The notes under the pieces are model-generated. The model was not told where the DNA came from. It saw only the letters and a list, made by a program, of their open reading frames with translations, and searched no databases. Shown piece after piece: positions 1 to 15,302 of a DNA stretch of 64,000 nucleotides; positions within the stretch are counted from its first letter, which is position 1; each line of letters opens with the position of its first letter. Origin of the DNA: Verrucomicrobiota bacterium (GTDB taxonomy: Bacteria; Verrucomicrobiota; Verrucomicrobiia; Limisphaerales; UBA8199). The stretch lies in the NCBI GenBank assembly GCA_035358715.1, contig DAOPPX010000005.1, positions 25-64,024 on the forward strand. The letters run 5' to 3'. A program made the translations under genes and the position numbers.

Positions 1-47
1 CTTTTCTCACACCTCTATGGGATGCCTGTGATATTCATTTGTGGGTT

Positions 48-1790
48 CTAAATGACCTTTACGGCTGGTTTAGTGTCCTTGTTGGCGGCTTGGAGGCTGG
101 CCAACAACGCGGTGCGGTCGGTCTTCCCGCTGGAGGTCTTGGGCAGCAGATCGCAGAACTCGATTCGCTCGGGCACCATGTACTTGGGCACGTGCCGGGC
201 GCAAAACGCCTCCAACTCCTTCGGGGTTACGTTGCCGTCGCGTGAAAGCACAACGAAGGCGCGAATCCGGTTGCCCAGCAATTCGTCGGGAATTGCCAGC
301 GCCACGGCCTCCTTGACCTGTTCGTGGCGGTAGAGAGCGGTTTCGATTTCTCCCAACTCGATCCGGTAGCCACGGCTCTTGATCATGTGATCGCGGCGGC
401 CGAGGTAAATCCAGTTCTTGCGATCCGGCGCCAAGACAACGATATCACCGGTCCGGAAGGCCGGGTCCGGGAACACCTGGTTCAGCGGGTTCTGAACGAA
501 CGCCTTGGCGGTCTTTTCGCGGTCGCCCCAATAGCCCTGCGCCACGCAGGCGCCCCTGGCCCAAAGTTCCCCCTCCTGCCCAGGCTCGGTAACGAGTGCT
601 CCATCCTTGTCAATGGCGAACACATCAATGTTGCGGCAGGCCCGGCCGATCGGCACCGGCTGTGTGCGTTCCGGAGCGAGGTCCTGAGGTTGGACGTGGT
701 AATACGTGCAGACATTGGTCTCCGTAGGCCCGTACAAATTGTAGTACGAAGGATGGGGAACGATCTCCACCAGCCGCCGCAGGTATTTTAGAGGGAACAC
801 CTCACCAGCAAAGAGCACCGCACGCAGGGCGGAGAAATCGTGCGCGCCGAGTTTGCCATAGTTCACCATGAACGAGAGAATCGACGGGACCAGGTAGGTG
901 ATCGTGATCCGTTCGTCCTGGATCAAATCCGCCATCTGAACAGGCAACGCCGCGAGGTTTTCGCCGACAAGCACAATCGTCGCTCCCGCCTTGATGGTGG
1001 CATAGAGGTCGAACGTTGACAGATCGAAATGCAGTGGCGCATGGCTGGTGACGCGGTCCTTCGCGGTCATCTGAAACTCGGCGCAGGCCCAGTCAACAAA
1101 TGTGAGGATCGTTCGGTGGGAGATCATCACGCCTTTTGGGGCACCAGTCGAACCGGAAGTGTAAAGGATGTAGGCCAGGTCGTTATCAATGCATTCCGGC
1201 AAATACACCTGGGCGCTGTCCTGGCCCAGGACGACGCTCCACGGCGTCACTACGACTTGCGGCGGGAGCTCGCGCGGCGCTTCCGGCGAGTCGTCGGCGA
1301 GCACGACGTGTTCGATGGGGCTGCCTTCGATAAAGAACTCCGCCAACAAGGGGAACTTGGCCGCCGAGGTGAGGACGACTCTAATACCGCAGTCACGCGT
1401 GATGTAAGCAAGGCGCTTGGGAGGGGCGTTCGGATCAAGCGGGACATAGGCCGCGCCGGCCTTCATAATCCCAAACACACCGATCACAGAGGCGTGTGAC
1501 TTGTGGATGTAGAGACCGACACGGTCTCCTCGCTTGACCCCGGCCGAAATCAGCGTGCGCGCGAGCTGATTGGTCAGGCGCTCCAGATGGGCATAGGTAA
1601 GTGCAACGCCATCCATGCGAACGGCATCCCGCTCGGGGTAATGGGCGGCGCTACGGGTGAGGAATTGAGGCAACAGGTATTCCACAAGATTCTCGTTGCA
1701 TGTGATCATCTCTGGCGCGATCTGCTCAATGCTATCTACATTCGTTAGTTGCTGATGCCCGGAGTTGCTCACCTGGCCTGCGTTGGCCAT
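48..1790 (-). CDS. Stand-alone adenylation enzyme (ANL superfamily; DltA/NRPS A-domain-like)
   Basis: The 580-aa ORF carries the A-domain core motifs LAYILYTSGSTGAPKGV, YNLYGPTE, FRTGD, GRRDHMIKSRGYRIELGEIE and PKTSSGKTDR. No C, T or TE domains are present. The ORF-track start overlaps the upstream gene by 59 nt. The ATG at 1709 (MITCNENLVEYL) is an alternative start. Confidence 0.9.
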   Translation of the reverse strand: MANAGQVSNSGHQQLTNVDSIEQIAPEMITCNENLVEYLLPQFLTRSAAHYPERDAVRMDGVALTYAHLERLTNQLARTLISAGVKRGDRVGLYIHKSHASVIGVFGIMKAGAAYVPLDPNAPPKRLAYITRDCGIRVVLTSAAKFPLLAEFFIEGSPIEHVVLADDSPEAPRELPPQVVVTPWSVVLGQDSAQVYLPECIDNDLAYILYTSGSTGAPKGVMISHRTILTFVDWACAEFQMTAKDRVTSHAPLHFDLSTFDLYATIKAGATIVLVGENLAALPVQMADLIQDERITITYLVPSILSFMVNYGKLGAHDFSALRAVLFAGEVFPLKYLRRLVEIVPHPSYYNLYGPTETNVCTYYHVQPQDLAPERTQPVPIGRACRNIDVFAIDKDGALVTEPGQEGELWARGACVAQGYWGDREKTAKAFVQNPLNQVFPDPAFRTGDIVVLAPDRKNWIYLGRRDHMIKSRGYRIELGEIETALYRHEQVKEAVALAIPDELLGNRIRAFVVLSRDGNVTPKELEAFCARHVPKYMVPERIEFCDLLPKTSSGKTDRTALLASLQAANKDTKPAVKVI

Positions 1791-3768
1791 CCACCAACAA
1801 TTCAGCGATATCTACAACCGCAGGGGGTCTCTTCGCTGAGACAGTCGCCACGGCATCGGTCATCATTTTGAGGCAAAACGGGCAGCCCGTGGCGATCACG
1901 CCGGCACCCGTGCTCTCGGCTTCCTTCGCTCTGAGCGTGGAGACACGCTGCGCTGGCGCCTCATCCATCCACATGCGCCCACCACCCGCGCCACAGCAGA
2001 AGGACTTCCTTCCGCTTCGCGGCATCTCTCGCAAAACGGCAGCGCTCCGCGAAAGAACTTGTCGAGGCGCCGAGATCTCGCCGTTCGCGCGGGCCAGGTA
2101 GCATGGATCATGAAAGGTGACGGCAGTGTGAAGGCCAGGAGAGGGCCGCAAACGACCCGCGGCAAGGAGTTCCGCCAGGAATTGAGAGTGATGCTGAACC
2201 TGGTAATGACCGCCGAATTGAGGATACTCGTTCAGCAGAGTGTTGTAGCAGTGCGGACAGGCGGTCACAATCTTCCTGGCGTTGTGCGCATCGAGCGTTC
2301 GGATATTGTGCTGAGCGAGGTCCTGGAAAAGGAACTCGTCGCCAAGCCTGCGGGCCTGATCGCCAGTGCAACGTTCCAACTTGCCGAGAACTGCGTAGTT
2401 GACCCCGGCCGATTCCATCAACTGAACCATGCAGCGCGCCACGTTCTGCGCGCGTGGATCAAATGCAGCCGCGCAACCAACCCAGTAAAGAAACTCGTAC
2501 CCGGGGTTCGATTCGACTGTCGGCACACTCAGGCCATCCGCCCACCCAAGCCGTTCCGCATTAGGCCGGCCATAAGGATTGAACCGATTGGCAACGTGCT
2601 TCATTGAAACGGCAGCAGGGCCGGAGAAAGCTCCTTCGCCGACGAGATTACGTCGCAAATCACTGATGAAATCTACGTGGCCGATAAGCACTGGGCATTC
2701 TTCGACGCAGGCCTGGCACATTGTGCAAGCCCATAAAGACTCCGTTCGGATAGTGTCTCCCGGCAAGGAATCGGCCTCTGGCCCTCCCCACCGGGACATC
2801 GCGGCACGCAGGTCCGCAACCAGGTTCTTTGGTGAAAGTGGTTTGCCGACGCCCCACGCTGGACAGACATCCTGGCAGCGACCACACCCCATGCAGGAAT
2901 CCAGACTCAGCAGTTGCTGGCGGGTAAAATCCGCCAATTGCTTTACCCCCACCTTCCCGGACTTCTCCACGTCCTCCAATTTCAGCGGCGCCAGCACTCC
3001 AACTCCGCGCTGCGGCCGGCTCGCGATATTCACAGGGCCGGTGAGGACGTGCAGGAACCGGGTTGCCGGGATACATGCGAAGAATGCCGCGGCAAGTACC
3101 GTGTGCAACCACCACATGCCCAGGTGCAGAGGAGCGGTTGTGCCAACCTCCAGATTTCGCAAGAATGCAAGCTGAATTGCATCCCCGATCACAGACCAGC
3201 GGGCGATTTCACCTGGGACATGGCTGTAATGAAGGCGGAGAGCTTCCAGAATGAACCCTGTGACGCCCAGCCCGAGCAGTAGGCTTAGCAATGTCAGATC
3301 TCTGAGGTTGTCGTGCCCCAGACTGGCGGGCCTACGGAAGGTGCGACGGAGAAAAGCCAGGACGCACCCGATGCAAAACGCGACGCCGAAGACGTCCATG
3401 GTCAACTCATACACCAAGTAGTACAGCCCGTGATGGAAGTTGACGGGACCCTGGTCGGCGACCGCAAGCAGCGTCGTGCCGATCGTAAGAACCACGAATC
3501 CGCTCGCCAATAGGAGATGCAACGCCGCTCCAAGAGATTTTCGATGGACGCGCTTTTGAGCGACCGCGTAAACTGCCAACCGGCTCAGCCACACGCGCCA
3601 GTCTTTTTCGAATCCGCCCGACCGTCCCTGGCGCCATAGTCTCAGCCGCCCCCAAACCTGCCAACCTAACGCTGCCAGGCTTCCGCAGATCATGATGTAG
3701 AAAACCACGCGCATCCACGGGGCGATGTTGCCGAAGACCTCTCGGGTGGGTGCGATCCCGGTTTCCAT
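1732..3768 (-). CDS. Membrane-anchored Fe-S oxidoreductase, a fusion of an HdrE/DsrM/NarI-like membrane domain with an HdrD/DsrK/GlpC-like domain (EtfD-type candidate)
   Basis: The N-terminal ~250 aa form about 5-6 hydrophobic helices with conserved His residues. Two 4Fe-4S ferredoxin motifs follow (CMGCGRCQDVCP, CTMCQACVEECP). Two CCG-type Cys-rich domains are present (ACPHCYNT; FCCGAGGG...GCPFCLKM). The gene lies immediately upstream of etfA, etfB and the ACAD gene. Confidence 0.85.
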   Translation of the reverse strand: METGIAPTREVFGNIAPWMRVVFYIMICGSLAALGWQVWGRLRLWRQGRSGGFEKDWRVWLSRLAVYAVAQKRVHRKSLGAALHLLLASGFVVLTIGTTLLAVADQGPVNFHHGLYYLVYELTMDVFGVAFCIGCVLAFLRRTFRRPASLGHDNLRDLTLLSLLLGLGVTGFILEALRLHYSHVPGEIARWSVIGDAIQLAFLRNLEVGTTAPLHLGMWWLHTVLAAAFFACIPATRFLHVLTGPVNIASRPQRGVGVLAPLKLEDVEKSGKVGVKQLADFTRQQLLSLDSCMGCGRCQDVCPAWGVGKPLSPKNLVADLRAAMSRWGGPEADSLPGDTIRTESLWACTMCQACVEECPVLIGHVDFISDLRRNLVGEGAFSGPAAVSMKHVANRFNPYGRPNAERLGWADGLSVPTVESNPGYEFLYWVGCAAAFDPRAQNVARCMVQLMESAGVNYAVLGKLERCTGDQARRLGDEFLFQDLAQHNIRTLDAHNARKIVTACPHCYNTLLNEYPQFGGHYQVQHHSQFLAELLAAGRLRPSPGLHTAVTFHDPCYLARANGEISAPRQVLSRSAAVLREMPRSGRKSFCCGAGGGRMWMDEAPAQRVSTLRAKEAESTGAGVIATGCPFCLKMMTDAVATVSAKRPPAVVDIAELLVDGQRRPGEQLRASATNECR

Positions 3769-3774
3769 GACTAC

Positions 3775-4734
3775 TCAGGAGCGAATTGCAGCGATCAGGT
3801 TGGGCACAAGCTCGTGTAAGTCACCAACCAGTCCGTAGTTGGCCATCTGAAATACCGGCGCATCAGGATCGCGGTTAATGGCTACGATCACTTTGGCATC
3901 CATGGTACCCGCCATATGCTGGATTGCGCCTGAAACGCCGACCGCGAAGTACAGTTCCGGTGCAACGGTCTTGCCCGTCTGGCCAACCTGACAATCATTC
4001 GGGACCATGCCGGCATCCACAGCAGCGCGCGTTGCGCCAACGGCCCCTCCCAAGGCATCCGCAAGCCCTCCAATTAACCGCTCGAAGGTCTCCTTGTCCT
4101 TGAGTGGCCTGCCCCCGCTTACAACGACGCTGGCCTCTGTCAGGTCGGGCCTTCCTGAAGGACGCGTATCACGCGACACGAACTGGGTCCCATTCGGAAG
4201 CGCTGCCGGGTCGAAGCTAAACATCTCGATAGGGCTGGGCGCCCCGGTGGGGACTGGAGTCGCGAACGCGGCACCTCGTACCGTCAAAACACGAACGTCA
4301 CCTTCGAGTTTCACAGTGGCCGACACGCTGCCTGCGTTCACCGGGTGTTGAAAGACGGTTTCCCCGTTGACAGTTTCCGAACCGGTAACATCGGAAAGCA
4401 TCGGGGCGTCGAGCAGCGCCGCTGTGCGAGGGAGAACGTCCTTTGTGAAGGTAGATGATGTGCCGAGCAGATTCCTGGCACCGAGCCTTCGCGCCATGGC
4501 TGCGAGAACAGCCGCATACCTGTCGGCGAGTGGTTCGGCCAGAAGCGGGCTATCCGCCAGCAAGACCGCTCTGGCGCCCAGTGCCCTCACGGATTCGGCA
4601 ATTTCGACTACACCATTGCCCAAGACTGCGAGGGCAAAGTGGTCACCCAAACGGCAGGCCAATCTGGCAGCGTTCAGGGAAGATCGCTTTATGGATCCCG
4701 CGCAATGCTCGATCAGTACCAGGCTTTCGATCAT
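3775..4734 (-). CDS. etfA: Electron transfer flavoprotein, alpha subunit
   Basis: The 319-aa protein has the C-terminal ETF-alpha FAD-binding signature (ELYFAVGVSGAIQHMAGTMDAKVIVAINRDPDAPVF). It is adjacent to etfB. Confidence 0.93.
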   Translation of the reverse strand: MIESLVLIEHCAGSIKRSSLNAARLACRLGDHFALAVLGNGVVEIAESVRALGARAVLLADSPLLAEPLADRYAAVLAAMARRLGARNLLGTSSTFTKDVLPRTAALLDAPMLSDVTGSETVNGETVFQHPVNAGSVSATVKLEGDVRVLTVRGAAFATPVPTGAPSPIEMFSFDPAALPNGTQFVSRDTRPSGRPDLTEASVVVSGGRPLKDKETFERLIGGLADALGGAVGATRAAVDAGMVPNDCQVGQTGKTVAPELYFAVGVSGAIQHMAGTMDAKVIVAINRDPDAPVFQMANYGLVGDLHELVPNLIAAIRS

Positions 4735-4767
4735 AGTCGAAGCGAACTGTATTCACCTTTATGCAAA

Positions 4768-5505
4768 TCAGAGGACCTTGTCGTTGTTGCGCAAACAAGC
4801 CACAAGCTGCTCCACTGTCTCCAACCGGACGCCGGCCGCACGCCGCGGTGTGGGTGAGGATTTCAGAACCGTGCTTCGCGACTGCACGTCCACGCCGATT
4901 TGTTCGACCGTAAGGACTTCAAACGGACGACGGCGTGCCTTCATTAGACTCGGCAGCGAAACGTATCGCGGCTCGTTGAGGCGCAGATCCGTCGTTACCA
5001 CCGCCGGCAGATCCACGGTGATAACCTCCAGGCCCGAATCCGTTTCCCGAGTGCAGCGGGCGATCGTGAAGCCGGACACGAATTCGATTTTGGAAACGAA
5101 TGTAGCCTGGGGCCAACTGAGTCTCCCTGCCAGCATTTGGCCGGTTTGGTTTGCGTCGCTGTCCACGGCTTGTTTGCCCATGAGAACCAGGTCAGGCTTT
5201 TCCAGTCGTACTACACCTTCCAGAATGCGCGAAACAGCGTAGGCGTCCAGGTAACGGCTATCATCAACCCGGATTGCGCGATCCAGCCCCATCGCCATGG
5301 CGGTGCGAACTTGCTCCTCGGCGCCTTCGGAACCGATCGTGGCGCCCACCAATTCCTGCGCTTCGCCACGCTCCTTGATTCGAATCGCTTCCTCGACTGC
5401 AATTTCATCAAACGGATTAATGATCCACTTGCGTTCTTCCACCGCGCCCTGGTCCACATACGATCCGGGATCTGCAACACGCTTGAAAGGAACCAGAATC
5501 TTCAT
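4768..5505 (-). CDS. etfB: Electron transfer flavoprotein, beta subunit
   Basis: The N-terminus MKILVPFKRV is typical of EtfB, and homology runs the full length. I chose the internal ATG at 5505. The ORF-track start at 5529 would overlap the ACAD stop. Confidence 0.92.
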   Translation of the reverse strand: MKILVPFKRVADPGSYVDQGAVEERKWIINPFDEIAVEEAIRIKERGEAQELVGATIGSEGAEEQVRTAMAMGLDRAIRVDDSRYLDAYAVSRILEGVVRLEKPDLVLMGKQAVDSDANQTGQMLAGRLSWPQATFVSKIEFVSGFTIARCTRETDSGLEVITVDLPAVVTTDLRLNEPRYVSLPSLMKARRRPFEVLTVEQIGVDVQSRSTVLKSSPTPRRAAGVRLETVEQLVACLRNNDKVL

Positions 5506-5518
5506 CGGCAGAACTGGA

Positions 5519-6664
5519 TTACAGCCCAAGCAGGGAGGCGATCAGATTCTTTTGAATCTCGCTGGTGCCGGAGTAGAGACGGCTGCCCAATGCGTCGCGC
5601 AGCTCACGCTCCATTTCGTAGTCAACCATGTATCCGTATCCTCCGTGAACCTGGATCGCGTCTTCACAGGTCTTTATCCAGCAGTCACTGATGTGAAGCT
5701 TCACCATTGCGGCTTCGAGAAAGCCCGCCTTGCCCTGCGAACGCAACCAGGCGCTGTGGTAGAGGAGTTGGCGCGAGGTTTCCAGGCGCAGTTTCATATC
5801 AACGATCTTGCCAGCGACGTGCTGGAACTTCCCGATGGATTGCCCGGATTGCTTGCGGGTTTTCGCGTAACGGATGCAGGTCTCGAGAATCCGTTGCATC
5901 GCCCCGACGGCACTCGCAAGGATACAGCCGCGTTCCCAGGTCATCGAACGGGAGAACACCAAACTGCCTCCGCCCTCCTGACCAAGCCTATTCTCCACGG
6001 GGACAGGGCAGTCTTCGAGGAACACCTCTGCCATTTGAGCCGTCCGCATACCCATCTTTTCTATCTTACGACCGATAACAAGACCGGGCGTGTTCTTCTC
6101 CACGAGGAAGCCAGTAACGCCATGGGGCCCTTTCGATTTATCAACCGTGGCATAAACTGCAAACAGGTCGGCCACTGGCGCATTGGTGACGAATGTCTTG
6201 CTCCCATTGAGGAGATAATGAGCACCATCCCGCTGGGCGGTGGTAGCCAGGTTGAACGCGTCGGAGCCGAAGTTCGGCTCACTCATTGCATTGGCGCCGA
6301 CGATGGCCCCGCTGGAAAGGCCGGGCAGGTATTTCCGCTTCTGCGAATCGGTTCCCGTTGTGATCAGGGGCATGACCACAGTCCAAAGATGCGCGTTGAT
6401 AGCGAAGATCAAACCGTTGTCCTTGCAAGAGTACCCTAACCGCTCGAGCACACCCGCGGTCATCAACGGATCGCATCCCAACCCCCCGTACTCCGGAGGG
6501 ACTGGCAGCCCCTGAATGCCAAAAACGCCGCACTTCTTCCACGCATCGTGACTAAACTGGCCCGCTCGGTCGGCCTGGATTGCGTCATATGCCAGTTCCC
6601 GAGCGGCAAAACGGTGCACGGCGTCGAGCAACTCCTTTTGCTCCTTGGACCAGGAAAAATCCAT
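5519..6664 (-). CDS. Acyl-CoA dehydrogenase family flavoprotein (substrate unknown)
   Basis: The 381-aa protein has the ACAD fold along its length (GANAMSEPNFGSD, FVTNAP, HGGYGY). The C-terminal motif reads YSGTSEIQ rather than YEGTSEIQ. Confidence 0.92.
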   Translation of the reverse strand: MDFSWSKEQKELLDAVHRFAARELAYDAIQADRAGQFSHDAWKKCGVFGIQGLPVPPEYGGLGCDPLMTAGVLERLGYSCKDNGLIFAINAHLWTVVMPLITTGTDSQKRKYLPGLSSGAIVGANAMSEPNFGSDAFNLATTAQRDGAHYLLNGSKTFVTNAPVADLFAVYATVDKSKGPHGVTGFLVEKNTPGLVIGRKIEKMGMRTAQMAEVFLEDCPVPVENRLGQEGGGSLVFSRSMTWERGCILASAVGAMQRILETCIRYAKTRKQSGQSIGKFQHVAGKIVDMKLRLETSRQLLYHSAWLRSQGKAGFLEAAMVKLHISDCWIKTCEDAIQVHGGYGYMVDYEMERELRDALGSRLYSGTSEIQKNLIASLLGL

Positions 6665-6709: not shown

Positions 6710-8017
6710 CTATACGACGTTCGCGGCCATTTCTTCGTCTGCTATTCCCACCGTTTCCGGGCTCTTGGCAACCTCCTCGGAGGTGATCGCACGGAGCGAG
6801 GCTGTCACCGCCAGGGTAAGATAGATGAAGATGAACGACTGATCGAAATACGCGATCGAGGTGCAGGAAACCGCGTGAACGAAGAGCGCCGCGCCCACAC
6901 ACCATACGAAGAAATGGTCCTGCGGAGGGCGAAGTCGGAGGAGTTGCCCGGCTGCTCGAAACCCCCACCACAGGAAGGACATGAAGAGCAGCATCAGAAG
7001 CAGCCCGCCTCGCACTCCCTGTCCCAGGTAGTGGTTGGTGATATCCGCGTGGTCTTCGCTCCACCCGACCCCGTAGGGCATCCAATCCCTCGTGTAATCA
7101 GTACCTGCGAACCACCACTCATTGATGTGCTCGATGCTTGATTGGATGAGTGCAGCTCGATGGTAGCCGGTGCTGCCGCCTACAAGATCTACCCGGGCCA
7201 CAAGATAATACGCCGGAGCCTTCATCACCAGATCGAGCAGCAGGTAGCCGACAATCGCCGCAACCCATACATGGCGCGTGAAACGGCGCCAACGCCAAAA
7301 TGCCAGCGCGGCGATCCCCGCGAACACGCTCAGGAGGGGCCCGCTGGATGCGCAAGTGACAACCATCAGGAGGCAGGCGGCAAGTCCAACCCGAGCTGCC
7401 AACGGTTCCTTCCTCCAAATCCCAACCAAGAGCGGGGCGCAAACCGCCCCTACTGTGCCGGCGAGGATGGAAACAGCGAACGGACCCTGGGCGCGCAGCC
7501 GGCCATTGCGGATCGTCGGTTCCTCTCCGACCCCGCCCAACACTGCGAACAGATTTCGATGAAGCAGCTTCTCGCTCAGCATTTCGAGCGCGACCGGCAC
7601 CAGCAGGATGGCGATCATTTTGGCAATCCGAATGGCATCGTCGAAAGACTGGCAGAAACACCGGAATAGAAAATAAATCCCGAGGACATTATAGAACATT
7701 CCCAGATGAAACGTCAACGTCTCTCCAGGATCTGGATGGAAGGCGCTGCTCAGGAGGACCCACCCGCCCCAGACCATTACCAGCCAATCCAAGCCGAAAA
7801 GACCACCCGCGGGGCGTTCACCCCGGGCCAAGACGCGCACCAAGCCCGTTAACACGAGGATGCGGATAACCGTGAACCGGAACGGGCCGAGGTCAACTGC
7901 CTGGCCCAGCGTCATGTAGCAGGCGCCGACCAGCAGAGGCAGCGGCGCCCATTTTCGCGGCAAGACCAGCAGCGCCAGCGCGGCTACCACGAGGAATGTT
8001 GCAGCAATCGGATTCAC
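6710..8017 (-). CDS. O-antigen ligase / Wzy-like polytopic membrane protein
   Basis: The 435-aa protein has about 10 or more hydrophobic helices with a large loop (O-antigen-ligase-like pattern). It has a 4-nt overlap with the upstream GT2 gene and sits in an EPS-locus context. Confidence 0.75.
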   Translation of the reverse strand: MNPIAATFLVVAALALLVLPRKWAPLPLLVGACYMTLGQAVDLGPFRFTVIRILVLTGLVRVLARGERPAGGLFGLDWLVMVWGGWVLLSSAFHPDPGETLTFHLGMFYNVLGIYFLFRCFCQSFDDAIRIAKMIAILLVPVALEMLSEKLLHRNLFAVLGGVGEEPTIRNGRLRAQGPFAVSILAGTVGAVCAPLLVGIWRKEPLAARVGLAACLLMVVTCASSGPLLSVFAGIAALAFWRWRRFTRHVWVAAIVGYLLLDLVMKAPAYYLVARVDLVGGSTGYHRAALIQSSIEHINEWWFAGTDYTRDWMPYGVGWSEDHADITNHYLGQGVRGGLLLMLLFMSFLWWGFRAAGQLLRLRPPQDHFFVWCVGAALFVHAVSCTSIAYFDQSFIFIYLTLAVTASLRAITSEEVAKSPETVGIADEEMAANVV

Positions 8018-9015
8018 GAGACAGAGTCAGGCGCCGGGCACTCGACTGCACCCAGTCGAGCCTCAGTTGCGCGGGGCGACTCGGCGACGAATGGGCGTTT
8101 AAGGCCGACGGCCCAGAGAAACACACACCATAACGTGAACAGTCTCTGGCGCGCCCTGGTTCCCTGGCGGACCATACACAACAGGCTTCCGAGCAGCATA
8201 CGAAACACCGCGCTAACCCCGACCACCAGGCGAAACAGCGCGACTCCAATCCACCCGTAGTACTTGCACATGTACTTGGCGATCGAGTCGTTCTTCATGA
8301 GCAGCGAAAAACCGCTGGGGGCCTTCTCGCTGGTGGCGCCGCAAACGTGGAGTATTTCGGCCTCCGCGCAATAGAAGAGCTCCCACCCGAGGAAACGAAT
8401 GGTGCGTGAAAGGTCAACGTCCTCGGCATACATAAAGTAGCGGTCGTCGAACCAGCCAGCCCGGTCCAACGCTTCCTTGCGCACCATCATGAATCCGCCA
8501 TAGAGTTTTCGGACGTAGGCGCTTCGCAGCGGGTCCAGGCGCGGGAGCAATGGACGAAAGAGTCGGCGGCATGCTCGGTTGGCCAGTACCGGCTCGAGTA
8601 GAATCGTAATGGGCGTAGGGTACCACTGCAATCCCTGCTCCTGCACCCCGCCGTCCAGGTACCGCATCTTGCATCCGGCGGCGCCCACATCGGGCTTGGC
8701 CATCATGAGTTGGACCATGCGTTCCAGCGTATCGGGCTTGAGTTCGGTATCTGGGTTCAGGAACAGCACCAGCGGGGTTGTCACCCGGGGCCGCGCCAGG
8801 TTGTTGGCTTTGCCAAAGCCGAGATTAGCACCGGAATTGAAGATGTGGAACTCCGCGAATTGCCGCTGAGCAAGCTCGCGACTGCCGTCGCGGGAGTCGT
8901 TGTCCACAACAATGACTCTGACTTCGAAACTCGTCCGACTTTCACGAATGCTCCGCAGGCAGCGCAGGAGAAACTCGCCGCCGTTCCAGTTTACGATGAC
9001 GATGGTGAGGTCCAT
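8014..9015 (-). CDS. Glycosyltransferase family 2
   Basis: The N-terminus (TIVIVNWNGGEFLLRCLRSI...VIVVDNDSRDGS) is the GT-A/GT2 signature. Confidence 0.9.
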   Translation of the reverse strand: MDLTIVIVNWNGGEFLLRCLRSIRESRTSFEVRVIVVDNDSRDGSRELAQRQFAEFHIFNSGANLGFGKANNLARPRVTTPLVLFLNPDTELKPDTLERMVQLMMAKPDVGAAGCKMRYLDGGVQEQGLQWYPTPITILLEPVLANRACRRLFRPLLPRLDPLRSAYVRKLYGGFMMVRKEALDRAGWFDDRYFMYAEDVDLSRTIRFLGWELFYCAEAEILHVCGATSEKAPSGFSLLMKNDSIAKYMCKYYGWIGVALFRLVVGVSAVFRMLLGSLLCMVRQGTRARQRLFTLWCVFLWAVGLKRPFVAESPRATEARLGAVECPAPDSVS

Positions 9016-9067
9016 CCAGAGCAGAAACTACGAAAGCAGAAAGCGGAGGCGGGCAGCGGGGCGTGTC

Positions 9068-10126
9068 TCAGTGTTTCGGTGTCACGGATTCTCGCACCTT
9101 GGCAACGAGGGAGCGGAGGTGTTCGGCGCCTCTGACGCTGGCGGAGCTGATCGTGTCCGCGCTGAGCGCGAAACGACCAAGGCCGGAGATGTCCTGTCCC
9201 CCAAGGCCCTGCTTAAAGTGATAGACACCCGGGTTTGTCTCCGGGTTGATTCCACCAAGGTCGTACCAGCGGCAGCCGCGTTCTTTCAATCGCTGCATGA
9301 AAGTCCATTGCAGGAGGTAGGAGCCTTTGGTCTTCATTCCCTCGTCGCTGGTGGCGCCCAGGAGGTAAATGCCCCTGTCCCCGGTCACAGCCCCAATCAG
9401 GGCGGTCATTGGGCGGTCCGCTCTGAGGCTCAGTAGAATCAGCATTTTTTGGTTCTCCGCAAGCCGGTCCTGGATGCGACGGAATTCCTCCGGGTCCACG
9501 GTGGTTTCAAATTGTTTGCGAGCCATCATCTCGCGGTAAAGGTCCAGAAACTGGGAAAAGAGGTCGTCACTGGTGCCCTCTACGACGGTGAGGCCGTTGC
9601 GCTCCGCTCCGTTCAACTGGTTCCGCCACTTTTGATCCAGGCGTTTTCGCAGTTGGTCCAGGGGCGGCGACAGGTCCACGCGAAATGTGCGATAGGGCTT
9701 TGCCTCGGCGTCGTTGTTAAACCCGAGTTCCTCCAAAACATGGAGCGTTCGGACCCCCTTGGGGTCCTGTGCGAAGGGACGGGGGACGATGCGCAGAAGC
9801 AGGCGTCGGCGCTCCACATATTCGGCAACAATCGCCCGCAACGCCTCGCGGAAGACAGTCTCATCCCAAACCCCGCCCGCTGGTGTGCAGACGGGGCCCC
9901 AGCGCAGGTAGGCGACGCCCCGGCTGATCAGGGGAAGCCGGACAAGGCGGAACTGGGCAGCGGCAACGGGCCTTTCCCCGGCTTTCAAAACGAAGTGGCT
10001 CAGTTGCTTTTCGCCCCACGAGACCGCTCCGTAAGCCCAGGTTTGATACAGGCTGGCATCGGCGAACTGATCGAGCAGGTTGCTCCACTCGGGTTCGGTG
10101 ATCTTGTCAATTTCGGTAGTAAACAT
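9068..10126 (-). CDS. FemAB-family (GNAT-fold) aminoacyl/peptidyl transferase-like protein, PEP-CTERM-locus type
   Basis: Length (352 aa) and sequence pattern match FemAB-related proteins of exosortase EPS loci (WAYGAVSW, LLGATSDEGMKTKGSYLLQW, YDLGGI). Confidence 0.8.
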   Translation of the reverse strand: MFTTEIDKITEPEWSNLLDQFADASLYQTWAYGAVSWGEKQLSHFVLKAGERPVAAAQFRLVRLPLISRGVAYLRWGPVCTPAGGVWDETVFREALRAIVAEYVERRRLLLRIVPRPFAQDPKGVRTLHVLEELGFNNDAEAKPYRTFRVDLSPPLDQLRKRLDQKWRNQLNGAERNGLTVVEGTSDDLFSQFLDLYREMMARKQFETTVDPEEFRRIQDRLAENQKMLILLSLRADRPMTALIGAVTGDRGIYLLGATSDEGMKTKGSYLLQWTFMQRLKERGCRWYDLGGINPETNPGVYHFKQGLGGQDISGLGRFALSADTISSASVRGAEHLRSLVAKVRESVTPKH

Positions 10127-10127
10127 G

Positions 10128-10172
10128 GCTACTGACTACTGACCACGGACCACAGACCACGGACTACTGACC
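10128..10172. repeat. Heptamer array GAC(C/T)ACN, about 6 units (arm T1)
   Basis: Read directly as gctact gactact gaccacg gaccaca gaccacg gactact gacc. It spans the spacer between the four-helix-bundle gene stop and the FemAB gene start. Confidence 0.8.
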
Positions 10173-10553
10173 GCTGACGATACGGCTGAGCCCGAGGACG
10201 ACGGCGCTGGTGAGGAGAGCCATGACTCTAGTCGGTTTGCCGGACTCGCGTTCCACGGCTTTGATCAGACCGTGGAGACAGGCGAAAGTGGTTTTAGTAT
10301 TACCAGCCAATCGTTGGCTCTCGGCCGGATTCAAGTATCCCAGCCGTTGCGCAAGGCGGATGAAGTATTGCGTCTCGGCCAAGGAACCGCGCGCGATGTA
10401 GAGAAAATGGAGGTAGTCTCGCTTGCTTTCGCGAGATGATCCCTCGGCAATATTGGCCGGGACCGAATAGGCCGCCCGCCGCAACTGACTAGTCAGCCCG
10501 TAGAGCTCTTCCCTTGGAAAAGCGCGCGTGCCTTCGTACACGGTCACCGTCAA
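10164..10553 (-). CDS. Four-helix-bundle protein (23S rRNA intervening-sequence protein / Avd family)
   Basis: Family hallmarks are present: FPREELYGLTSQLRRAAYSVPANIAEG and ARGSLAETQYFI. The ORF-track start is a TTG. In-frame family-like sequence (RDYTKIEAWKLADDL) continues upstream to a stop at 10620-10622 with no ATG or GTG. Confidence 0.85.
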   Translation of the reverse strand: MTVTVYEGTRAFPREELYGLTSQLRRAAYSVPANIAEGSSRESKRDYLHFLYIARGSLAETQYFIRLAQRLGYLNPAESQRLAGNTKTTFACLHGLIKAVERESGKPTRVMALLTSAVVLGLSRIVSGQ

Positions 10554-10658
10554 ATCATCAGCGAGCTTCCAAGCCTCAATCTTCGTGTAGTCACGGACGC
10601 CCGAATGTTCTGTTTGTAGTCAAAGGTCTATTCTCTGATGTCCCACCTCCAAGCAGGA

Positions 10659-10693
10659 GGTCTGTTGTCAGTGGTCCGTTGTCTTGTGGTCTC
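10659..10693. repeat. Inverted copy of the GACNAC heptamer array (arm T2)
   Basis: The plus strand reads ggtctgttgtcagtggtccgttgtcttgtggtctc. Its reverse complement is gagaccacaagacaacggaccactgacaacagacc, again GACNAC heptamers. It overlaps the 3' end of the deacetylase CDS. Confidence 0.75.
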
Positions 10694-11483
10694 TTCTCCC
10701 CAGCCAGCGATAGGCGCCGAGGATCTTAAGGCGGAATTCCAGCGGCGACATGTCGGGGTCCACGCTGGCGCGGCCGATTGGGATGTTTGAAGGTTGAGAA
10801 CTGAGGGTTGAGAGTGGAACAAAGTCGGGCTTGCTGCAAAAGATGTGCGTGTAGCCGGCGGCGCGAGCCTGCTGGTCCAGGGCAGGGGTGCGCGCGCCAA
10901 AGGGGTAGCTGAACTGGTTCACGGGCCGACCAACGATCTCTTCCAACCGGGCTTTAGAGCGCGACAACTCCTCAAAGGCGGCGTGAGAGTCGAGGTCGGG
11001 AAGATTGGCGTGGGTGACTGTGTGCGAGGCGACCTTCACGAGGGGGCCACGCGCGAGCTTGCGCAATTCATCTGCGGTCATAACGCGGTCTTCGCGGACT
11101 GCGGGATGGGCGTGCTTGAGCCAATCGGGCTTCTGACCAAGCCGTCCGGAGGGGATGAAAATGGTCCAAGGGATTTGCCTGGCTTCAAGTTCGGGCGCGG
11201 CGTTCTGCAGAACGCTGATAAAGCCGTCGTCGAAGGTGACGGACACATATCGCGTACCGGCACAGAGGTCGCCTTTCGGGTTCGTAGTTACAGGTCGGGC
11301 AACCTTGAGAATGGTATCAAGCTGGCTCGCGAACAGGGCCCGACTCTGCGCGGGAATGGCGTGGTAATAAAGCACCATGCAGCGGGGCGGCAAGGGCTTG
11401 CCGATCAGCCAAAAGAACGCGTCGTGGAGGATATCCCAGGCGCGGAGAAGAAGGCTGATCGCCAATTTTGCTGAACGCTTCAT
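10668..11483 (-). CDS. Polysaccharide deacetylase (CE4 / NodB homology)
   Basis: The motifs VTFDDGF and ASHTVTHANL are present. I chose the ATG at 11483; the ORF-track start at 11486 is a TTG one codon upstream. Confidence 0.88.
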   Translation of the reverse strand: MKRSAKLAISLLLRAWDILHDAFFWLIGKPLPPRCMVLYYHAIPAQSRALFASQLDTILKVARPVTTNPKGDLCAGTRYVSVTFDDGFISVLQNAAPELEARQIPWTIFIPSGRLGQKPDWLKHAHPAVREDRVMTADELRKLARGPLVKVASHTVTHANLPDLDSHAAFEELSRSKARLEEIVGRPVNQFSYPFGARTPALDQQARAAGYTHIFCSKPDFVPLSTLSSQPSNIPIGRASVDPDMSPLEFRLKILGAYRWLGRRDHKTTDH

Positions 11484-11490
11484 CAAGAAC

Positions 11491-11594
11491 GACCACGGAC
11501 CGCGGACTGCGGACTACAGGACCACGAGACTACAGGACCACGAGACTACGGGACCACGAGACTACGGGACCACGAGACTACGGGACCACATGAC
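11491..11594. repeat. Tandem repeat: 4 heptamers (gaccacg gaccgcg gactgcg gactaca), then 4.7 copies of a 16-nt unit GGACCACGAGACTAC(A/G)
   Basis: Read directly. The 16-nt units start at 11519, 11535, 11551 and 11567, with a partial unit at 11583. The array fills the whole 111-nt spacer between two CDSs. Confidence 0.9.
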
Positions 11595-13400
11595 CTAAGA
11601 GTGCCATTGCTCGAACCAGAGTTTGAGGGTGAGCATTGGGATCAGGAGCCAGATGTCCTGCCCTTGGTAGGCGGCGGTTTCGGGACGTATGTCCCCGGGA
11701 CTCAGGACACGCCGGAAAAAGTCGCTCGCAGCGGCGTTGGGACGCCTCCAGAGATCCTGAAGCTGCTGGCTCTGCGCGACGTAGCGATACCAATCCGGCC
11801 ATGAACCATCGGTCCCAATGGAGTTGGTGCGGCGGCGGAGCTTGCGCCGGGCACGAGACCAATTCCCATGCAGGGTTTCAGAGAGGGAGGAGGCGCCCAC
11901 CGACGCGCCCGTGTTGGCATCAGGCACGCGAGAGAGAGCGCCATTACAGAGACGGCGCACCGCTTTGGTAAAGACGGAACGATTCAATTTCAGGCGCGAC
12001 GGGATCTTCCGGTAGACATCGAGCACCGCGCGGTCAGCCATTGGCAGGTACCAACCGGTGACGCGCTGGGGCACCAGGCGCTGCTGATTGTCGCCTTCGT
12101 AGCAGAGGGGAAAGGTCCGATGGACCTCAACCTGGAAAATGGCAGCGTCCGAGTTCTGGGATTGGTATTGGAGAGGGACGCGGGATTCCAGGCGCTCGCG
12201 AACCTGTTGGGTCAGCAAACCCGGGCGCCGCTGATGGCTGAAGTAGAATTCGTGTTGGAACGGAGCGATTTGCTCCCGACCGCTGAGCCAATGGGTCCTG
12301 CGGTTAAGGGGAAGGCCTTTGAAGAGGTAATCACAATAACAACCCGTCAGGAGGTTATCAGCCCCTTCAGCACGGAGGCGGCGGACGACACCTAAGAAGT
12401 GGTTGTTGGCAAAGGTGCCCATGCCACCGGAGGTCCGGGTACCGGCCTCGGCATTGAGTCCGTAGAATTCGAACTCACGCTGCCAGGGATGGAAAGCGAC
12501 CTGCAAGGCCCGGGCAATGGCCTGGGCCGAAGCCAGCTCGCGGTTTGGCTCGTTGTAGCAGCAGAAGGCAAAGACCAGGTCACGATTCTCCACGCAGGCG
12601 AGGAGAGCGCGCGAGTCGAGACCGCCGCTGAGAGCAACGGCAGTGCGCCCGAGGCGTCGCTGTGTGCGGCGGCGCACGGAAGTGCGAATGGCCTCAGCAA
12701 GCTCGGCGCCAAGATCGTCTTCGTCCTGACCCGGCTGCGACCCCAGGGAGATTTCGAGGTAGCGATAGGTCTGTATCCTGGACCGTGGCTGCGAGGACAG
12801 GTCAATCACAGTGGTGGTGGCGTGCGGGAGGGCGCGGATGCATCGGTAGTAGGTGGATGGAGGTGTAACAGTGCTGGTGAGCAGAAACTCGGTCATCGAG
12901 ACCTCGTCCAGACTCGCCTGCTCGCCAGTCAATACGGCCAGGACATCCGGGTGAGAGCAAAAGATGAACTTCTCGGCAGAGTCCAGCTGGTATGCAGGAA
13001 ATGCCCCAGCCCAATCTGTGACCAAGTGGAACGCGCACGCCAAGGGATCATAAATGAGAACCACACGATTCCCACCGAGTTGTTCGACGGCGGCGAGGCC
13101 GCGCTGGCGATAGATTGCGTATAGGGCTTTGCATGCCAGACCGCCATCGCCCGCCACTTTTTCGCCCCCCAGCCATTCCAAGTCGTCCATCGCCACGCGT
13201 CCGGCAAGAACAATGGTGGTGCCATCAGCCGCGCGGTAAGGCGCCCACAGATCGGCCCTCTCAGTTAGCGTCACGACGACGGAGAACAGGGGATCATCCA
13301 AAACTACTGATCGGCTATGTTCTGTGAATCGCAGCAACTCGGCAGCCCTTGCCGCGTGGCGCGCACTGGCAGGCCTAAAATCGAGATAAAAATCGCCCAT
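11595..13400 (-). CDS. Asparagine synthetase B-family (PP-loop) amidotransferase-like protein lacking the N-terminal catalytic Cys
   Basis: The PP-loop motif ALSGGLDSRAL is present and the length (601 aa) is AsnB-like. The N-terminus is MGDFYLDF, not MCG. Confidence 0.85.
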   Translation of the reverse strand: MGDFYLDFRPASARHAARAAELLRFTEHSRSVVLDDPLFSVVVTLTERADLWAPYRAADGTTIVLAGRVAMDDLEWLGGEKVAGDGGLACKALYAIYRQRGLAAVEQLGGNRVVLIYDPLACAFHLVTDWAGAFPAYQLDSAEKFIFCSHPDVLAVLTGEQASLDEVSMTEFLLTSTVTPPSTYYRCIRALPHATTTVIDLSSQPRSRIQTYRYLEISLGSQPGQDEDDLGAELAEAIRTSVRRRTQRRLGRTAVALSGGLDSRALLACVENRDLVFAFCCYNEPNRELASAQAIARALQVAFHPWQREFEFYGLNAEAGTRTSGGMGTFANNHFLGVVRRLRAEGADNLLTGCYCDYLFKGLPLNRRTHWLSGREQIAPFQHEFYFSHQRRPGLLTQQVRERLESRVPLQYQSQNSDAAIFQVEVHRTFPLCYEGDNQQRLVPQRVTGWYLPMADRAVLDVYRKIPSRLKLNRSVFTKAVRRLCNGALSRVPDANTGASVGASSLSETLHGNWSRARRKLRRRTNSIGTDGSWPDWYRYVAQSQQLQDLWRRPNAAASDFFRRVLSPGDIRPETAAYQGQDIWLLIPMLTLKLWFEQWHS

Positions 13401-13447
13401 TTTCGACGTGGAGTACCGGAGCGCCGGCGTAGTCGGGGGATCAGTGG

Positions 13448-14332
13448 TTAGTGATCAGACGTCCAGAGGCTCTCTCTGCCGAAGAGGCGGTTGAGTTGCT
13501 GGCGACGGAGATAACGGATGAGATTTGGGTCTGGCACCTGCGGAAGACGTTTCAGGTAGCCGGCGAGGAAACCAACCAAAAGGCCCCCGGCAGCCACGCC
13601 GTGAGGGGATTCAAAAGCCCTCTTGAAGCACTTGAGCAGCATGAAAAGGGGATGGTAGCCGGTGATGTAGTTGGCCCGGCCGTTCTTAACCCAGTTCTTC
13701 CACGAACCATCAGCGGACCCGGTGGGTTTGAGTTGGCAGATGCGCAGCTCACGAAAGGAGTAGGTTCTCCAGCCAAGCATGTTGGCTTTCAACTCGTCAA
13801 TGGTATCCCACCCAGGTGCGGGGACGAGTCTGCCGATGGCGGCCCAGGCAGCGCGACGGTAGATTTTTGTGGCGCCGCGCACGTGGAACGCGGGATCGCC
13901 TGGCGAGTCTTCAACCGCAGCTCCGTTGATTTGATGGTAAACCCTGCCACCGCCGATTCCCAAGCGAGGATCCCGAGCGAACCGTTCGAAGCAACCTTCG
14001 AAGTAGTTGGCCGGAAAAGACAAGTCCCCGTCAAGCTTAACCAGGAAATCCCACGCCTCGTTTTCCACCAACCGATAACCTTCATAGAAGGCCTCGACTA
14101 CCCCGCCACCTTGTTTGCGAAATCCGCGGTCAGGGCGGGTCACCGAGCGTATCCATCCATGCTGGCTCCTGGCATGCTCAATAACTTTGGGGGTGCCGTC
14201 CGTCGAACCATCGTCTACGAGCACCCAGAGGGAAGGTCTTACAGTCTGGCTGGTGACGGAAACAACTGTGGCCGGAAGATTTGCCTCCTCATTCCGCACC
14301 GGGGTGACGATGACATAGCTAGCCGGGGCCAT
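13448..14332 (-). CDS. Glycosyltransferase family 2
   Basis: YVIVTPVRNEEANL...VLVDDGSTDGT is the GT2 signature. I chose the internal ATG at 14332. The ORF-track N-terminal extension overlaps the upstream gene and is Arg-rich junk. Confidence 0.88.
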   Translation of the reverse strand: MAPASYVIVTPVRNEEANLPATVVSVTSQTVRPSLWVLVDDGSTDGTPKVIEHARSQHGWIRSVTRPDRGFRKQGGGVVEAFYEGYRLVENEAWDFLVKLDGDLSFPANYFEGCFERFARDPRLGIGGGRVYHQINGAAVEDSPGDPAFHVRGATKIYRRAAWAAIGRLVPAPGWDTIDELKANMLGWRTYSFRELRICQLKPTGSADGSWKNWVKNGRANYITGYHPLFMLLKCFKRAFESPHGVAAGGLLVGFLAGYLKRLPQVPDPNLIRYLRRQQLNRLFGRESLWTSDH

Positions 14333-14340
14333 ACCGAGAC

Positions 14341-15279
14341 CTAGTTCGAAAGCTCCCGGCCCTGGCAGTCGCTGCAGGCAACGCCATCCTTGATTCGATT
14401 GCGAGATGTTAGCTTCTTGAACAGAGCCTGCGGCCCGGCGAGCCAATCGTAATTGCCGTCGAGCTTTGCTTGGAAAAGGGCGAGGTCGTCCAGCGAATTT
14501 GCCGGCAGTCGTTTCAGGCTGAAAGGATCGTCGCCGGCGCAGACACGACCGAGCACCGTGGTGGCACAACAAGCATACCCTGCATCCACCAATAAATCTC
14601 TGAACGCGGCAACAAACGTCTTGGCGCCGCGGGGGAATGCATAGGGGTAGCAGAACGCGGTCACTGGTTCGCCAAGCTGCTGCTCCATTTCGGCCTTGGA
14701 GTCCGAGAGCTCAGACCTGATGCGGGGCCAATCCAGTTCCACGAGTTTGGGGTGGGTAACGGTATGGGAGCCGAAATCGATCCCCGCCTTTCGCATTTCG
14801 CGAACCTCGTTCCAAGACAGGCACTCTGCTCCAGCGGCTGGAGTCCGCCCCCTTAAGGCCGGAGCAAGGGAACCCGGAGCGAAAGCGCGACGCTTGTTGC
14901 CGATGAAAGCCGTGGCCAGGAACACTGCGGCAGTAAATCCGTGCTGCTGCAGGACAGGAAACGCCTCTGTGTAAAAGTTGCAGAAGCCGTCATCAAAGGT
15001 CAGCAAGACCGACCTCTCCGGAAAAGGCGTCCCGGCTCTAAGAAGCTCCAGGAGCCCGGGAAGGCTGAGAGATCTATAGCCATGTTCGGCGAGGAAGCCT
15101 ACATGATCACGGAAGACCCCGGGAGCCGTGTTGGTTCGGTAATAGCCTGAAACTCGAGGCTCGGGTGCGTCACTAATGCTGTGATACATCAGGATCGGCA
15201 GGCGCCCCCTCCTCGCAGTCCCTGTCAACCTGCCAAGTGGACGCTGAACGTGAAGGGTAATGGCCCGATCCCACCGCAT
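14341..15279 (-). CDS. Polysaccharide deacetylase (CE4 / NodB homology)
   Basis: The motifs LLTFDDGFCNFY, GSHTVTHPKL and ILMYHSI are present. Confidence 0.88.
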   Translation of the reverse strand: MRWDRAITLHVQRPLGRLTGTARRGRLPILMYHSISDAPEPRVSGYYRTNTAPGVFRDHVGFLAEHGYRSLSLPGLLELLRAGTPFPERSVLLTFDDGFCNFYTEAFPVLQQHGFTAAVFLATAFIGNKRRAFAPGSLAPALRGRTPAAGAECLSWNEVREMRKAGIDFGSHTVTHPKLVELDWPRIRSELSDSKAEMEQQLGEPVTAFCYPYAFPRGAKTFVAAFRDLLVDAGYACCATTVLGRVCAGDDPFSLKRLPANSLDDLALFQAKLDGNYDWLAGPQALFKKLTSRNRIKDGVACSDCQGRELSN

Positions 15280-15302
15280 CGGAACTGAACAAAGAGGCCG
15301 CC

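Follow-up and report, generated by a model that had tools for sequence, protein, structure and literature searches.

The window considered here is a 64,000-nt stretch of contig DAOPPX010000005.1 from a Verrucomicrobiota bacterium, and the subject is a module of five co-oriented minus-strand genes at its left end. As listed in Table 1, these genes encode an acyl-CoA dehydrogenase family flavoprotein (ACAD), both subunits of an electron-transfer flavoprotein (ETF; EtfB and EtfA), an EtfD-type membrane oxidoreductase and a stand-alone adenylation enzyme (A enzyme). All five open reading frames (ORFs) were found where a preliminary description of this DNA had placed them, and ORF, Pfam and NCBIfam analysis confirmed that they follow Wzy-like, GT2 and FemAB genes of an exopolysaccharide (EPS) operon with gaps of no more than 45 nt. 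The gap between the Wzy-like and ACAD genes is 45 nt, and those between ACAD and EtfB, EtfB and EtfA, and EtfA and EtfD are 13, 33 and 6 nt, respectively; the EtfD and A genes overlap, or lie 22 nt apart should the ATG at 1709 be the start codon of the A gene. The five genes probably form the core of a thiotemplated proline-oxidation branch within this Wzx/Wzy-type operon.

Table 1. Positions in the window of the five-gene module, its junctions and the adjoining EPS genes
Feature	Position	Strand	Basis or remark
Prolyl-S-carrier-protein dehydrogenase, ACAD family, AnaB/PigA/Bmp3 clade	5519..6664	-	NCBIfam, PDB matches
EtfB (ETF beta subunit)	4768..5529; likely start ATG 5505, 13 nt past ACAD stop	-	Pfam ETF, start-codon context
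EtfA (ETF alpha subunit, FAD-binding)	3775..4734	-	Pfam ETF and ETF_alpha
EtfD-type membrane ETF:menaquinone oxidoreductase	1732..3768	-	Pfam CCG (two), Fer4, Nitrate_red_gam
Stand-alone proline-type A enzyme, PltF/PigI-like	48..1790; alternative start ATG 1709	-	AMP-binding and AMP-binding_C
Exchangeable cassette (ACAD body, etfB, etfA, etfD) relative to locus L013	1685..6550	-	DNA comparison
Junction with insertion sequence (DDE_Tnp_1/DUF4372 transposase) where relatives hold the carrier-protein gene	1..47	-	Contigs L001, L005
Co-oriented Wzx/Wzy-type EPS operon, ended by the five-gene module	6710..23040	-	Pfam, NCBIfam
Wzy-like	6710-8017	-	Wzy_C match 23.1 bits, below 31.7 cut-off
GT2	8014-9015	-	Pfam/NCBIfam
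FemAB	9068-10126	-	Pfam/NCBIfam
Four-helix-bundle protein	10164-10553	-	23S_rRNA_IVP/TIGR02436 family; between deacetylase and FemAB genes
Deacetylase	10668-11486	-	Pfam/NCBIfam
AsnB-like	11595-13400	-	Pfam/NCBIfam
GT2	13448-14572	-	Pfam/NCBIfam
Deacetylase	14341-15279	-	Pfam/NCBIfam
GT4	15303-17549	-	Pfam/NCBIfam
Wzc-like	17671-19893	-	Pfam/NCBIfam
FemAB	19974-21119	-	Pfam/NCBIfam
RfaH/NusG paralogue	21338-22021	-	Pfam/NCBIfam; heads EPS operon
Wza-like exporter	22246-23040	-	Pfam/NCBIfam

The ACAD carries all three domains of its family according to Pfam. In the NCBIfam ranking, PigA (431 bits) is followed by RedW (407 bits) and AcrC (312 bits), while among structures in the Protein Data Bank (PDB), AnaB (4irn) scores 462 bits, ahead of 6cxt (347 bits), PigA (5zw0, 310 bits) and generic ACADs (at most 276 bits). 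Structure 6cxt is that of Bmp3, and it has been reported that a catalytic glutamate is needed for pyrrolidine dehydrogenation (PMC10849742). The corresponding residue, E244 in a TWERG motif, is invariant among the ACAD homologues and aligned with the glutamate of AnaB and Bmp3. These homologues number in the hundreds at 65–83% identity, chiefly in Verrucomicrobiota, and several are labelled "L-prolyl-PCP dehydrogenase" by JGI. In a neighbour-joining (NJ) tree, the surveyed ACADs form one clade with AnaB as its sister and Bmp3 outside. Both rankings uphold the PltE/RedW type proposed in the preliminary description, and by sequence the ACAD is placed in a distinct subfamily, sister to AnaB. Since AnaB is much the closest characterized homologue, ahead of the pyrrole-forming Bmp3 and PigA, and is sister to the entire clade, the ACAD may halt after two electrons as AnaB does, so that the group formed would be 1-pyrroline-5-carboxyl (dehydroprolyl) rather than pyrrole-2-carboxyl. 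This is possible but somewhat doubtful, because the halogenase genes near some members of the clade point to an aromatic pyrrole as the substrate in those cases; sequence cannot decide between two- and four-electron chemistry, and we know of no sequence determinant of it.

The A enzyme passes the TIGR01733 model "amino acid adenylation domain" (369 bits, cut-off 317), and its top single-domain PDB match is PltF, an L-proline-[carrier protein] ligase (6o6e, 321 bits). Read off the alignment at ten positions, its specificity code is DLFYLALVCK, compared with DLLYLALVCK in PltF and DLFYIAWVCK in PigI. Among the ACAD-adjacent A domains of relatives, 19 of 21 have exactly DLFYLALVCK or DLLYLALVCK, and the other two are one position off the PltF code. 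The enzyme is predicted to be specific for L-proline; the stand-alone A domain of the preliminary description is thus borne out as an amino-acid adenylating enzyme and not a fatty-acyl-CoA ligase. Three other identities were considered and rejected. All acyl-CoA ligase models stay below their cut-offs (e.g., NF004837, 320 versus 476 bits); the exosortase-type ligase of EPS loci to which the preliminary description alluded scores 353.8 bits in TIGR03098 against a cut-off of 592.35; and the DltA model TIGR01734 gives 269 bits against a cut-off of 560, with no MBOAT protein in the window.

EtfB matches the ETFs of Paracoccus (1efp_B, 214 bits) and human (1efv_B, 200 bits), as does EtfA (1efv_A, 226 bits; 1efp_A, 214 bits). 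Because these scores are about double those of bifurcating Etfs (73–107 bits for EtfB, at most 147 for EtfA), EtfAB is assigned to the canonical group 1, electron-shuttling type, and a bifurcating Etf (73–147 versus 200–226 bits) is rejected. EtfB also retains the PRYxxLP sequence of the recognition loop for ACAD docking. The membrane protein is composed of a NarI-like haem b membrane part, a 4Fe-4S dicluster domain with two cubane sites and two CCG domains, and it aligns with EtfD of M. smegmatis (9ojn; 356 bits, E 3e-105) in its membrane part as well as in its soluble part. The 9ojn alignment was read against the cofactor residue list of the M. smegmatis structure paper (PMC13083937), with the haem-contact residues Arg137 and Arg150 lying outside the traced set. 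Both haem b histidines and Arg306 are kept, as are the two phenylalanines that stack on menaquinone, the eight cysteines of cubane clusters D3 and D4, the four cysteines and EtfD-specific Thr539 of the linear 3Fe-4S cluster D1, and the five cysteines and EtfD-specific His583 of the non-cubane cluster D2. The disordered C-terminal tail of about 265 residues found in the mycobacterial protein is absent. A heterodisulfide reductase identity is rejected, and the proposed identity as an EtfD-type ETF oxidase holds for all traced ligands.

In the branch as proposed, L-proline would be adenylated by the A enzyme and loaded onto a small carrier protein, and the ACAD would then take two or four electrons to give a pyrroline-carboxyl or pyrrole-2-carboxyl thioester. 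The reduced FAD of the ACAD would be re-oxidised by ETF in place of O2, and EtfD, with its Fe-S chain and haem b, would relay the electrons to menaquinone. Oxidation by this route would be independent of O2 and would make no H2O2, which is a plausible advantage. Two hexapeptide (Hex) acyltransferases, known from relatives of this locus, may shift the oxidised prolyl group to a polymer sugar or nucleotide-sugar, and an equivalent transfer outside the cytoplasm seems to be the task of a DltB-like MBOAT-SGNH fusion in other phyla. What can be read in the sequences themselves are the enzyme identities, the proline code, the EtfD cofactor sites, the conserved gene order, a cassette exchange and the lack of PCP and Hex genes here, whereas respiratory coupling and glycan tailoring are functions that we infer; transfer from ACAD through ETF and EtfD to menaquinone is suggested in particular by the gene order, shared by about 60 of 80 surveyed loci, and by the exchange of these genes as one cassette.

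The survey comprised those 80 loci (one genome per species), three direct look-ups and 27 loci from a metagenome scan seeded with a Hex alignment, compared by tblastn screening and neighbour clustering; loci are designated by L numbers. The order ACAD-EtfB-EtfA-EtfD occurs in Verrucomicrobiota, Planctomycetota and Gemmatimonadaceae, and six locus types can be recognized. Type I (L010, L011, L012, L116 and the window, the last without PCP-Hex-Hex) reads ACAD-EtfB-EtfA-EtfD-A-PCP-Hex-Hex, where PCP denotes the peptidyl carrier protein, and its neighbours are glycosyltransferase (GT), Wzx flippase, pyruvyl transferase and PGA_cap genes. Type II (L008, L016, L099, L102, L103) consists of ACAD-A-PCP, followed by Hex genes except in L016, with Wzx and without ETF. 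Type III, in Phycisphaerae and Pirellulales, has the order large membrane protein-PCP-A-ACAD-EtfB-EtfA-EtfD, while type IV (Bryobacterales, Lacunisphaera and Microvirga aerophila) combines the same membrane protein with PCP-A-ACAD and has no ETF. In type V (Udaeobacter and relatives), ACAD-EtfBA-EtfD has GT4, phosphodiesterase, DegT aminotransferase, epimerase and divergent A genes as neighbours, and Trp_halogenase-family and KASIII genes are frequently present too. Type VI, found in most Chthoniobacterales, is ACAD-EtfBA-EtfD alone.

The PCP gene directly follows the A gene in L008, L010, L011, L012, L016, L098–L103 and L116 and precedes it in L073, L075, L080 and L084–L090. The two paralogous Hex genes after the PCP gene encode Vat/CatB-like left-handed beta-helix acyltransferases, and a reverse search from the Hex side recovers PCP, A and ACAD. 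The carrier protein and transferases that the preliminary description predicted do exist in relatives, where their genes come immediately after the A gene. In the closest relatives the module accompanies polysaccharide genes and not beta-oxidation genes, as the neighbourhood survey showed, and no thiolase, hydratase or hydroxyacyl-CoA dehydrogenase gene was found nearby in any surveyed locus type.

The strongest indication that the ACAD and its electron path belong together comes from the sister locus L013 (CAZHEW010000004.1). Its DNA is 95–100% identical to the window down to about 6550 and again from about 1681, with flanks at about 98%, while the ACAD body between has only 61–79% DNA identity and encodes an ACAD-only allele with 74% amino-acid identity. 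L013 lacks window positions 1685–5518 (3.8 kb; etfB, etfA and etfD), and its A gene begins 15 nt past the ACAD stop codon; of the two recombination breakpoints, one falls about 115 nt inside the ACAD gene and the other at the 5' end of the A gene. The presence of an ACAD-only allele in a nearly unchanged operon indicates that the ACAD and its electron path were exchanged as one cassette, which argues for a functional unit. Homology confirms the ETF and EtfD proteins of the private path in the preliminary description, but this part is optional, since near-identical and related loci carry the ACAD alone. In the NJ tree, ETF-less ACADs are spread over three subclades, and the window ACAD groups with L010–L012 (with ETF) beside L013, L008 and L016 (without ETF). 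R18 and Y349 are retained in all ETF-linked ACADs and often substituted in ETF-less ones, a contrast that is weak because the sequence set is phylogenetically confounded.

These comparisons also bear on a purely catabolic explanation, in which ACAD, EtfAB and EtfD would be an ordinary degradative unit and the A enzyme a fatty-acyl-CoA ligase, merely adjoining EPS genes. ACAD-EtfBA-EtfD is indeed the known electron path of mycobacterial beta-oxidation (PMC8593149, PMC13083937), and in most Chthoniobacterales the four genes lie amid housekeeping-type neighbours. However, a prolyl-ACP dehydrogenase matches the ACAD at 462 bits and no acyl-CoA dehydrogenase at more than 276, the A enzyme has a proline code, satisfies the model for amino-acid adenylation and fails every acyl-CoA ligase cut-off, the three beta-oxidation genes looked for above are missing near every locus type, and the cassette replaces an ACAD-only allele at the same site of the same EPS operon. 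We consider this explanation very improbable.

Several observations weigh against a respiration-coupled proline-oxidation branch. The ACAD falls short of the curated equivalog cut-offs of PigA (NF053553, 431 versus 500 bits) and RedW (NF045652, 407 versus 650 bits). The existence of ETF-less loci means that ETF coupling is not obligatory, and the characterized homologues AnaB and Bmp3 are oxidases by title (PMC10849742). Most Chthoniobacterales have ACAD-EtfBA-EtfD without an A or PCP gene within 10 kb; related proline-type A genes were found in separate loci, which may or may not belong to the same genomes. Neither PCP nor Hex genes were detected by tblastn or profile searches in the 64-kb window or beyond the insertion sequence (IS) that borders it. 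A literature search returned nothing that ties pyrrole-2-carboxylate or proline-derived acyl groups to polysaccharide, and likewise nothing relevant that links prolyl-carrier dehydrogenases to ETF.

Some further features of the Verrucomicrobiota loci were noted. The separate A loci of Chthoniobacterales (L118, L119) have a Wzx-like flippase, a PMT_2 glycosyltransferase and sulfotransferases alongside, and the lone ACAD-EtfBA-EtfD sets (L007/L041, L031–L070) are preceded by a conserved 190-aa protein to which no family was assigned. One to three Trp_halogenase-family flavoenzymes are encoded near ACAD-EtfBA-EtfD in L019, L020, L021, L024, L028, L062 and L072, with a KASIII pair in addition in L021 and L024. 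These halogenases, in loci of the Udaeobacter type and some others, hint at halogenated pyrrole products in those organisms.

Such genes raise the question of whether the module makes carrier-bound pyrrole or dehydroproline for a diffusible metabolite, in the style of pyoluteorin, prodiginine or anatoxin, with its position among EPS genes being incidental. Every characterized homologue belongs to a natural-product pathway (PDB matches; PMC10849742), and the Udaeobacter-type relatives carry the one to three halogenase-family genes and KASIII genes just mentioned. Near the module, in the window and in its nearest relatives, however, no polyketide synthase (PKS), condensation domain of a non-ribosomal peptide synthetase (NRPS), halogenase or thioesterase was found; the neighbours are GT, Wzx, Wzy, pyruvyl transferase and deacetylase genes, the Wzy-like gene is co-oriented with the module at 45 nt, and the delivery enzymes are sugar-type left-handed beta-helix acyltransferases or the DltB-like MBOAT-SGNH fusion. 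A metabolite function is therefore regarded as unlikely.

Whether the branch is complete in this genome is a separate matter. An identical A gene is present on contigs of six other assemblies, most of which end just past it. Two contigs, L001 and L005, extend further, and in both a 413-aa transposase gene begins 84 nt beyond the A stop codon. The IS continues at 2847–4333 of L005 and at 11744–13214 of L001, and imperfect terminal inverted repeats enclose about 1.49 kb (gapped alignment score 39, shuffle maximum 32). Past the IS, L005 holds about 370 nt of non-coding DNA, after which a WecA/MraY-family gene begins. The distance from the A stop codon to the PCP start is 8–35 nt in relatives. The sequence ATGAATATCAC, 9 nt past this codon, lies within the imperfect inverted repeats yet resembles the PCP start of relatives, and it may be either what is left of the PCP gene or a piece of the IS end.

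Two PCPs and four Hex proteins used as tblastn queries had no hit in the 64-kb window or the post-IS sequence. Profile hidden Markov models (HMMs) of 35 PCPs and of 55 Hex proteins, run against all six frames of the same DNA, reached E-values no better than 4.3 and 5.6, so that neither a carrier protein nor an acyltransferase was detected. The Hex-seeded metagenome scan yielded none of its 27 loci from the samples of the window. The preliminary description was correct that no carrier protein or transferase is visible in the window, but its suggestion that one may lie left of position 1 failed for this genome, where the IS and then the WecA-type gene were found instead. These negative results make function in this genome doubtful, and the branch here is most likely truncated, or reliant on partners encoded elsewhere, as judged from the available contigs.

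It can be asked, further, whether the module here is a mere remnant, from which an IS-mediated event removed the PCP and acyltransferase genes so that the polymer is no longer modified. This concerns activity in this genome and not the identity of the module, and we give it nearly an even chance. Every assembly long enough to show it has the transposase gene 84 nt past the A stop codon, at a site where relatives have the PCP gene; PCP and Hex genes escaped both kinds of search in the 64 kb and the post-IS sequence; and a WecA-type gene follows the IS in their stead. On the other hand, all five genes are full-length, intact ORFs, and the junction is 100% identical in six assemblies of different samples, which speaks for a stable arrangement in a successful population. 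The missing genes could also adjoin another IS copy, as contigs that break at the IS suggest several copies. As it is incomplete, the window copy is of lower value as a model locus, yet the family-level finding remains of interest. With respect to the claim that the product decorates the polymer, transferases do exist in relatives, whereas attachment itself stays conjectural and the branch is probably incomplete here.

In types III and IV, the transfer may be carried out by the large membrane protein of about 900 aa (L075, 13–2352; L084, L086, L087 and L089; L090, 1164–3878), which had no match in Pfam, NCBIfam or PDB sequence searches. An AlphaFold model built from 28 homologues has a predicted local distance difference test score (pLDDT) of 83 and a predicted template modelling score (pTM) of 0.77. 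In a fold search with this model, DltB came first (TM 0.62–0.64 on the target), followed by other MBOATs, and the C-terminal domain matched GDSL/SGNH esterases. With this modelled DltB-like MBOAT-SGNH fusion, types III and IV can be classed as Dlt-like systems that contain a dehydrogenase in addition. In Microvirga aerophila DSM 21344 (L090, NZ_QOIO01000079.1), a trio of PP-binding protein, proline-type A enzyme and ACAD lies at 4081–7194, the ACAD being 64% identical to that of the window, and an AT3-SGNH acyltransferase is encoded at 12079–14094. This cultured alphaproteobacterium is a possible experimental system for the MBOAT-SGNH form.

The module can be compared with several known systems. 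Its chemistry matches that of the thiotemplated pyrrole trios (PMC10849742), among them PltF-PltL-PltE of pyoluteorin, RedM-RedO-RedW and PigI-PigG-PigA of the prodiginines, Bmp1/Bmp3, and AnaC-AnaD-AnaB of anatoxin-a. A stand-alone proline A enzyme one position off PltF, an ACAD of the same clade with the same catalytic glutamate and, in relatives, a small dedicated carrier protein encoded alongside are common to both. The module differs in that its genes lie in a polysaccharide operon instead of a PKS/NRPS cluster, that the carrier protein is missing in this genome, that a private EtfAB and EtfD are encoded, in contrast to the enzymes titled oxidases, and that its ACAD stays under the curated cut-offs given above. 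With the mycobacterial FadE-EtfBA-EtfD path (Rv0338c/EtfD, 9ojn; PMC8593149, PMC13083937), the module shares the logic of ACAD to ETF to EtfD to menaquinone, the EtfD architecture with its traced cofactor ligands and a canonical ETF. Unlike that path, it would serve not bulk beta-oxidation but biosynthetic tailoring by a dehydrogenase whose substrate is a carrier-protein thioester; its genes form one operon, and its EtfD is without the long disordered C-terminal region.

Among systems that acylate sugars or surface polymers, the Dlt system of teichoic acid D-alanylation (DltA-DltC-DltB-DltD) likewise uses a stand-alone A enzyme and a small carrier protein to decorate a surface polymer, and relatives in Planctomycetota, Bryobacterales and Microvirga encode the modelled DltB-fold MBOAT-SGNH protein with PCP-A-ACAD. 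Here, however, the amino acid would be proline, oxidised on the carrier first, and the sub-type of the window would use cytoplasmic hexapeptide acyltransferases. In clorobiocin and coumermycin biosynthesis, the pyrrole-2-carboxyl group made by CloN3-CloN4-CloN5 is transferred to the deoxysugar noviose by the acyltransferases CloN2/CloN7. As proposed for the module, proline is loaded onto a carrier and oxidised by an ACAD, and the pyrrolyl group is moved to a sugar hydroxyl by dedicated acyltransferases, but the acceptor there is a small-molecule antibiotic, the transferase folds are others and there is no ETF or EtfD. The role of CloN3 is mentioned in PMC10849742. The XrtA/PEP-CTERM EPS loci, which contain an AMP-forming ligase (TIGR03098) and an acyl carrier protein, resemble the operon in having an adenylating enzyme and FemAB-family and AsnB-like genes; the operon differs in that its FemAB and AsnB-like proteins, too, are under the PEP-CTERM-specific cut-offs, and the window has no exosortase.

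We found no description in the literature of this combination, a carrier-dependent tailoring dehydrogenase with its own ETF and EtfD in polysaccharide loci of several phyla. To our knowledge, the natural electron acceptor of AnaB/Bmp3-clade enzymes is not settled; EC 1.3.8.14 (L-prolyl-PCP dehydrogenase) lists ETF as the formal acceptor. For one large clade, the genome suggests a concrete acceptor, a dedicated ETF with EtfD leading to menaquinone, inherited as a cassette with the ACAD. If this is true, proline-to-pyrrole chemistry would be possible without O2, and the system would be the first carrier-protein-dependent tailoring dehydrogenase with its own respiratory outlet as well as the source of the first proline-derived heteroaromatic substituent on a polysaccharide. 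EtfD, hitherto tied to mycobacterial beta-oxidation, would be extended to a biosynthetic role. The A-PCP-ACAD-acyltransferase block, and its Dlt-like form, predicts a new acyl substituent on surface polysaccharides in abundant but little-studied phyla of soil and water. We tentatively extend this, as a plausible reading that falls somewhat short of even odds, to a widespread and undescribed glycan decoration by respiration-wired, carrier-bound proline oxidation in Verrucomicrobiota, Planctomycetota, Acidobacteriota and some Alphaproteobacteria, where a pyrrole-2-carbonyl or dehydroprolyl product would be placed by the Hex pair or the MBOAT-SGNH fusion.

The remaining observations concern the surroundings of the module. 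The first 24 kb of the window are a single co-oriented minus-strand block, with a GC content of 58–60% (1–24000) compared with 62–67% in the remainder (24000–64000), which fits a horizontally exchanged, variable polysaccharide locus. Promoter- and terminator-like sites occur at chance-level counts in a scan of the region, with none within the 6664–6710 junction, and the scan gives no evidence for transcription of the module separately from the EPS genes. An operon-specific antiterminator of the RfaH/NusG type would help transcription to run through the entire 22-kb block with the module at its end. The Wzy-like gene contains one promoter-like site (7717–7688, minus strand) that agrees with the consensus at 11 of 12 bases, within a regional total at chance level. 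Adjoining the EPS block, positions 24335–36136 encode a GH106 alpha-L-rhamnosidase, an alpha-L-fucosidase and an efflux set of OEP, ABC-2 permease, ABC ATPase and HlyD-type proteins. Farther along, tRNA-Arg(TCG) lies at 40301–40377 (minus strand) and tRNA-His(GTG) at 46360–46437 (plus strand), and a 6S RNA at 57556–57736 (plus strand) scores 72 bits, over its gathering score.

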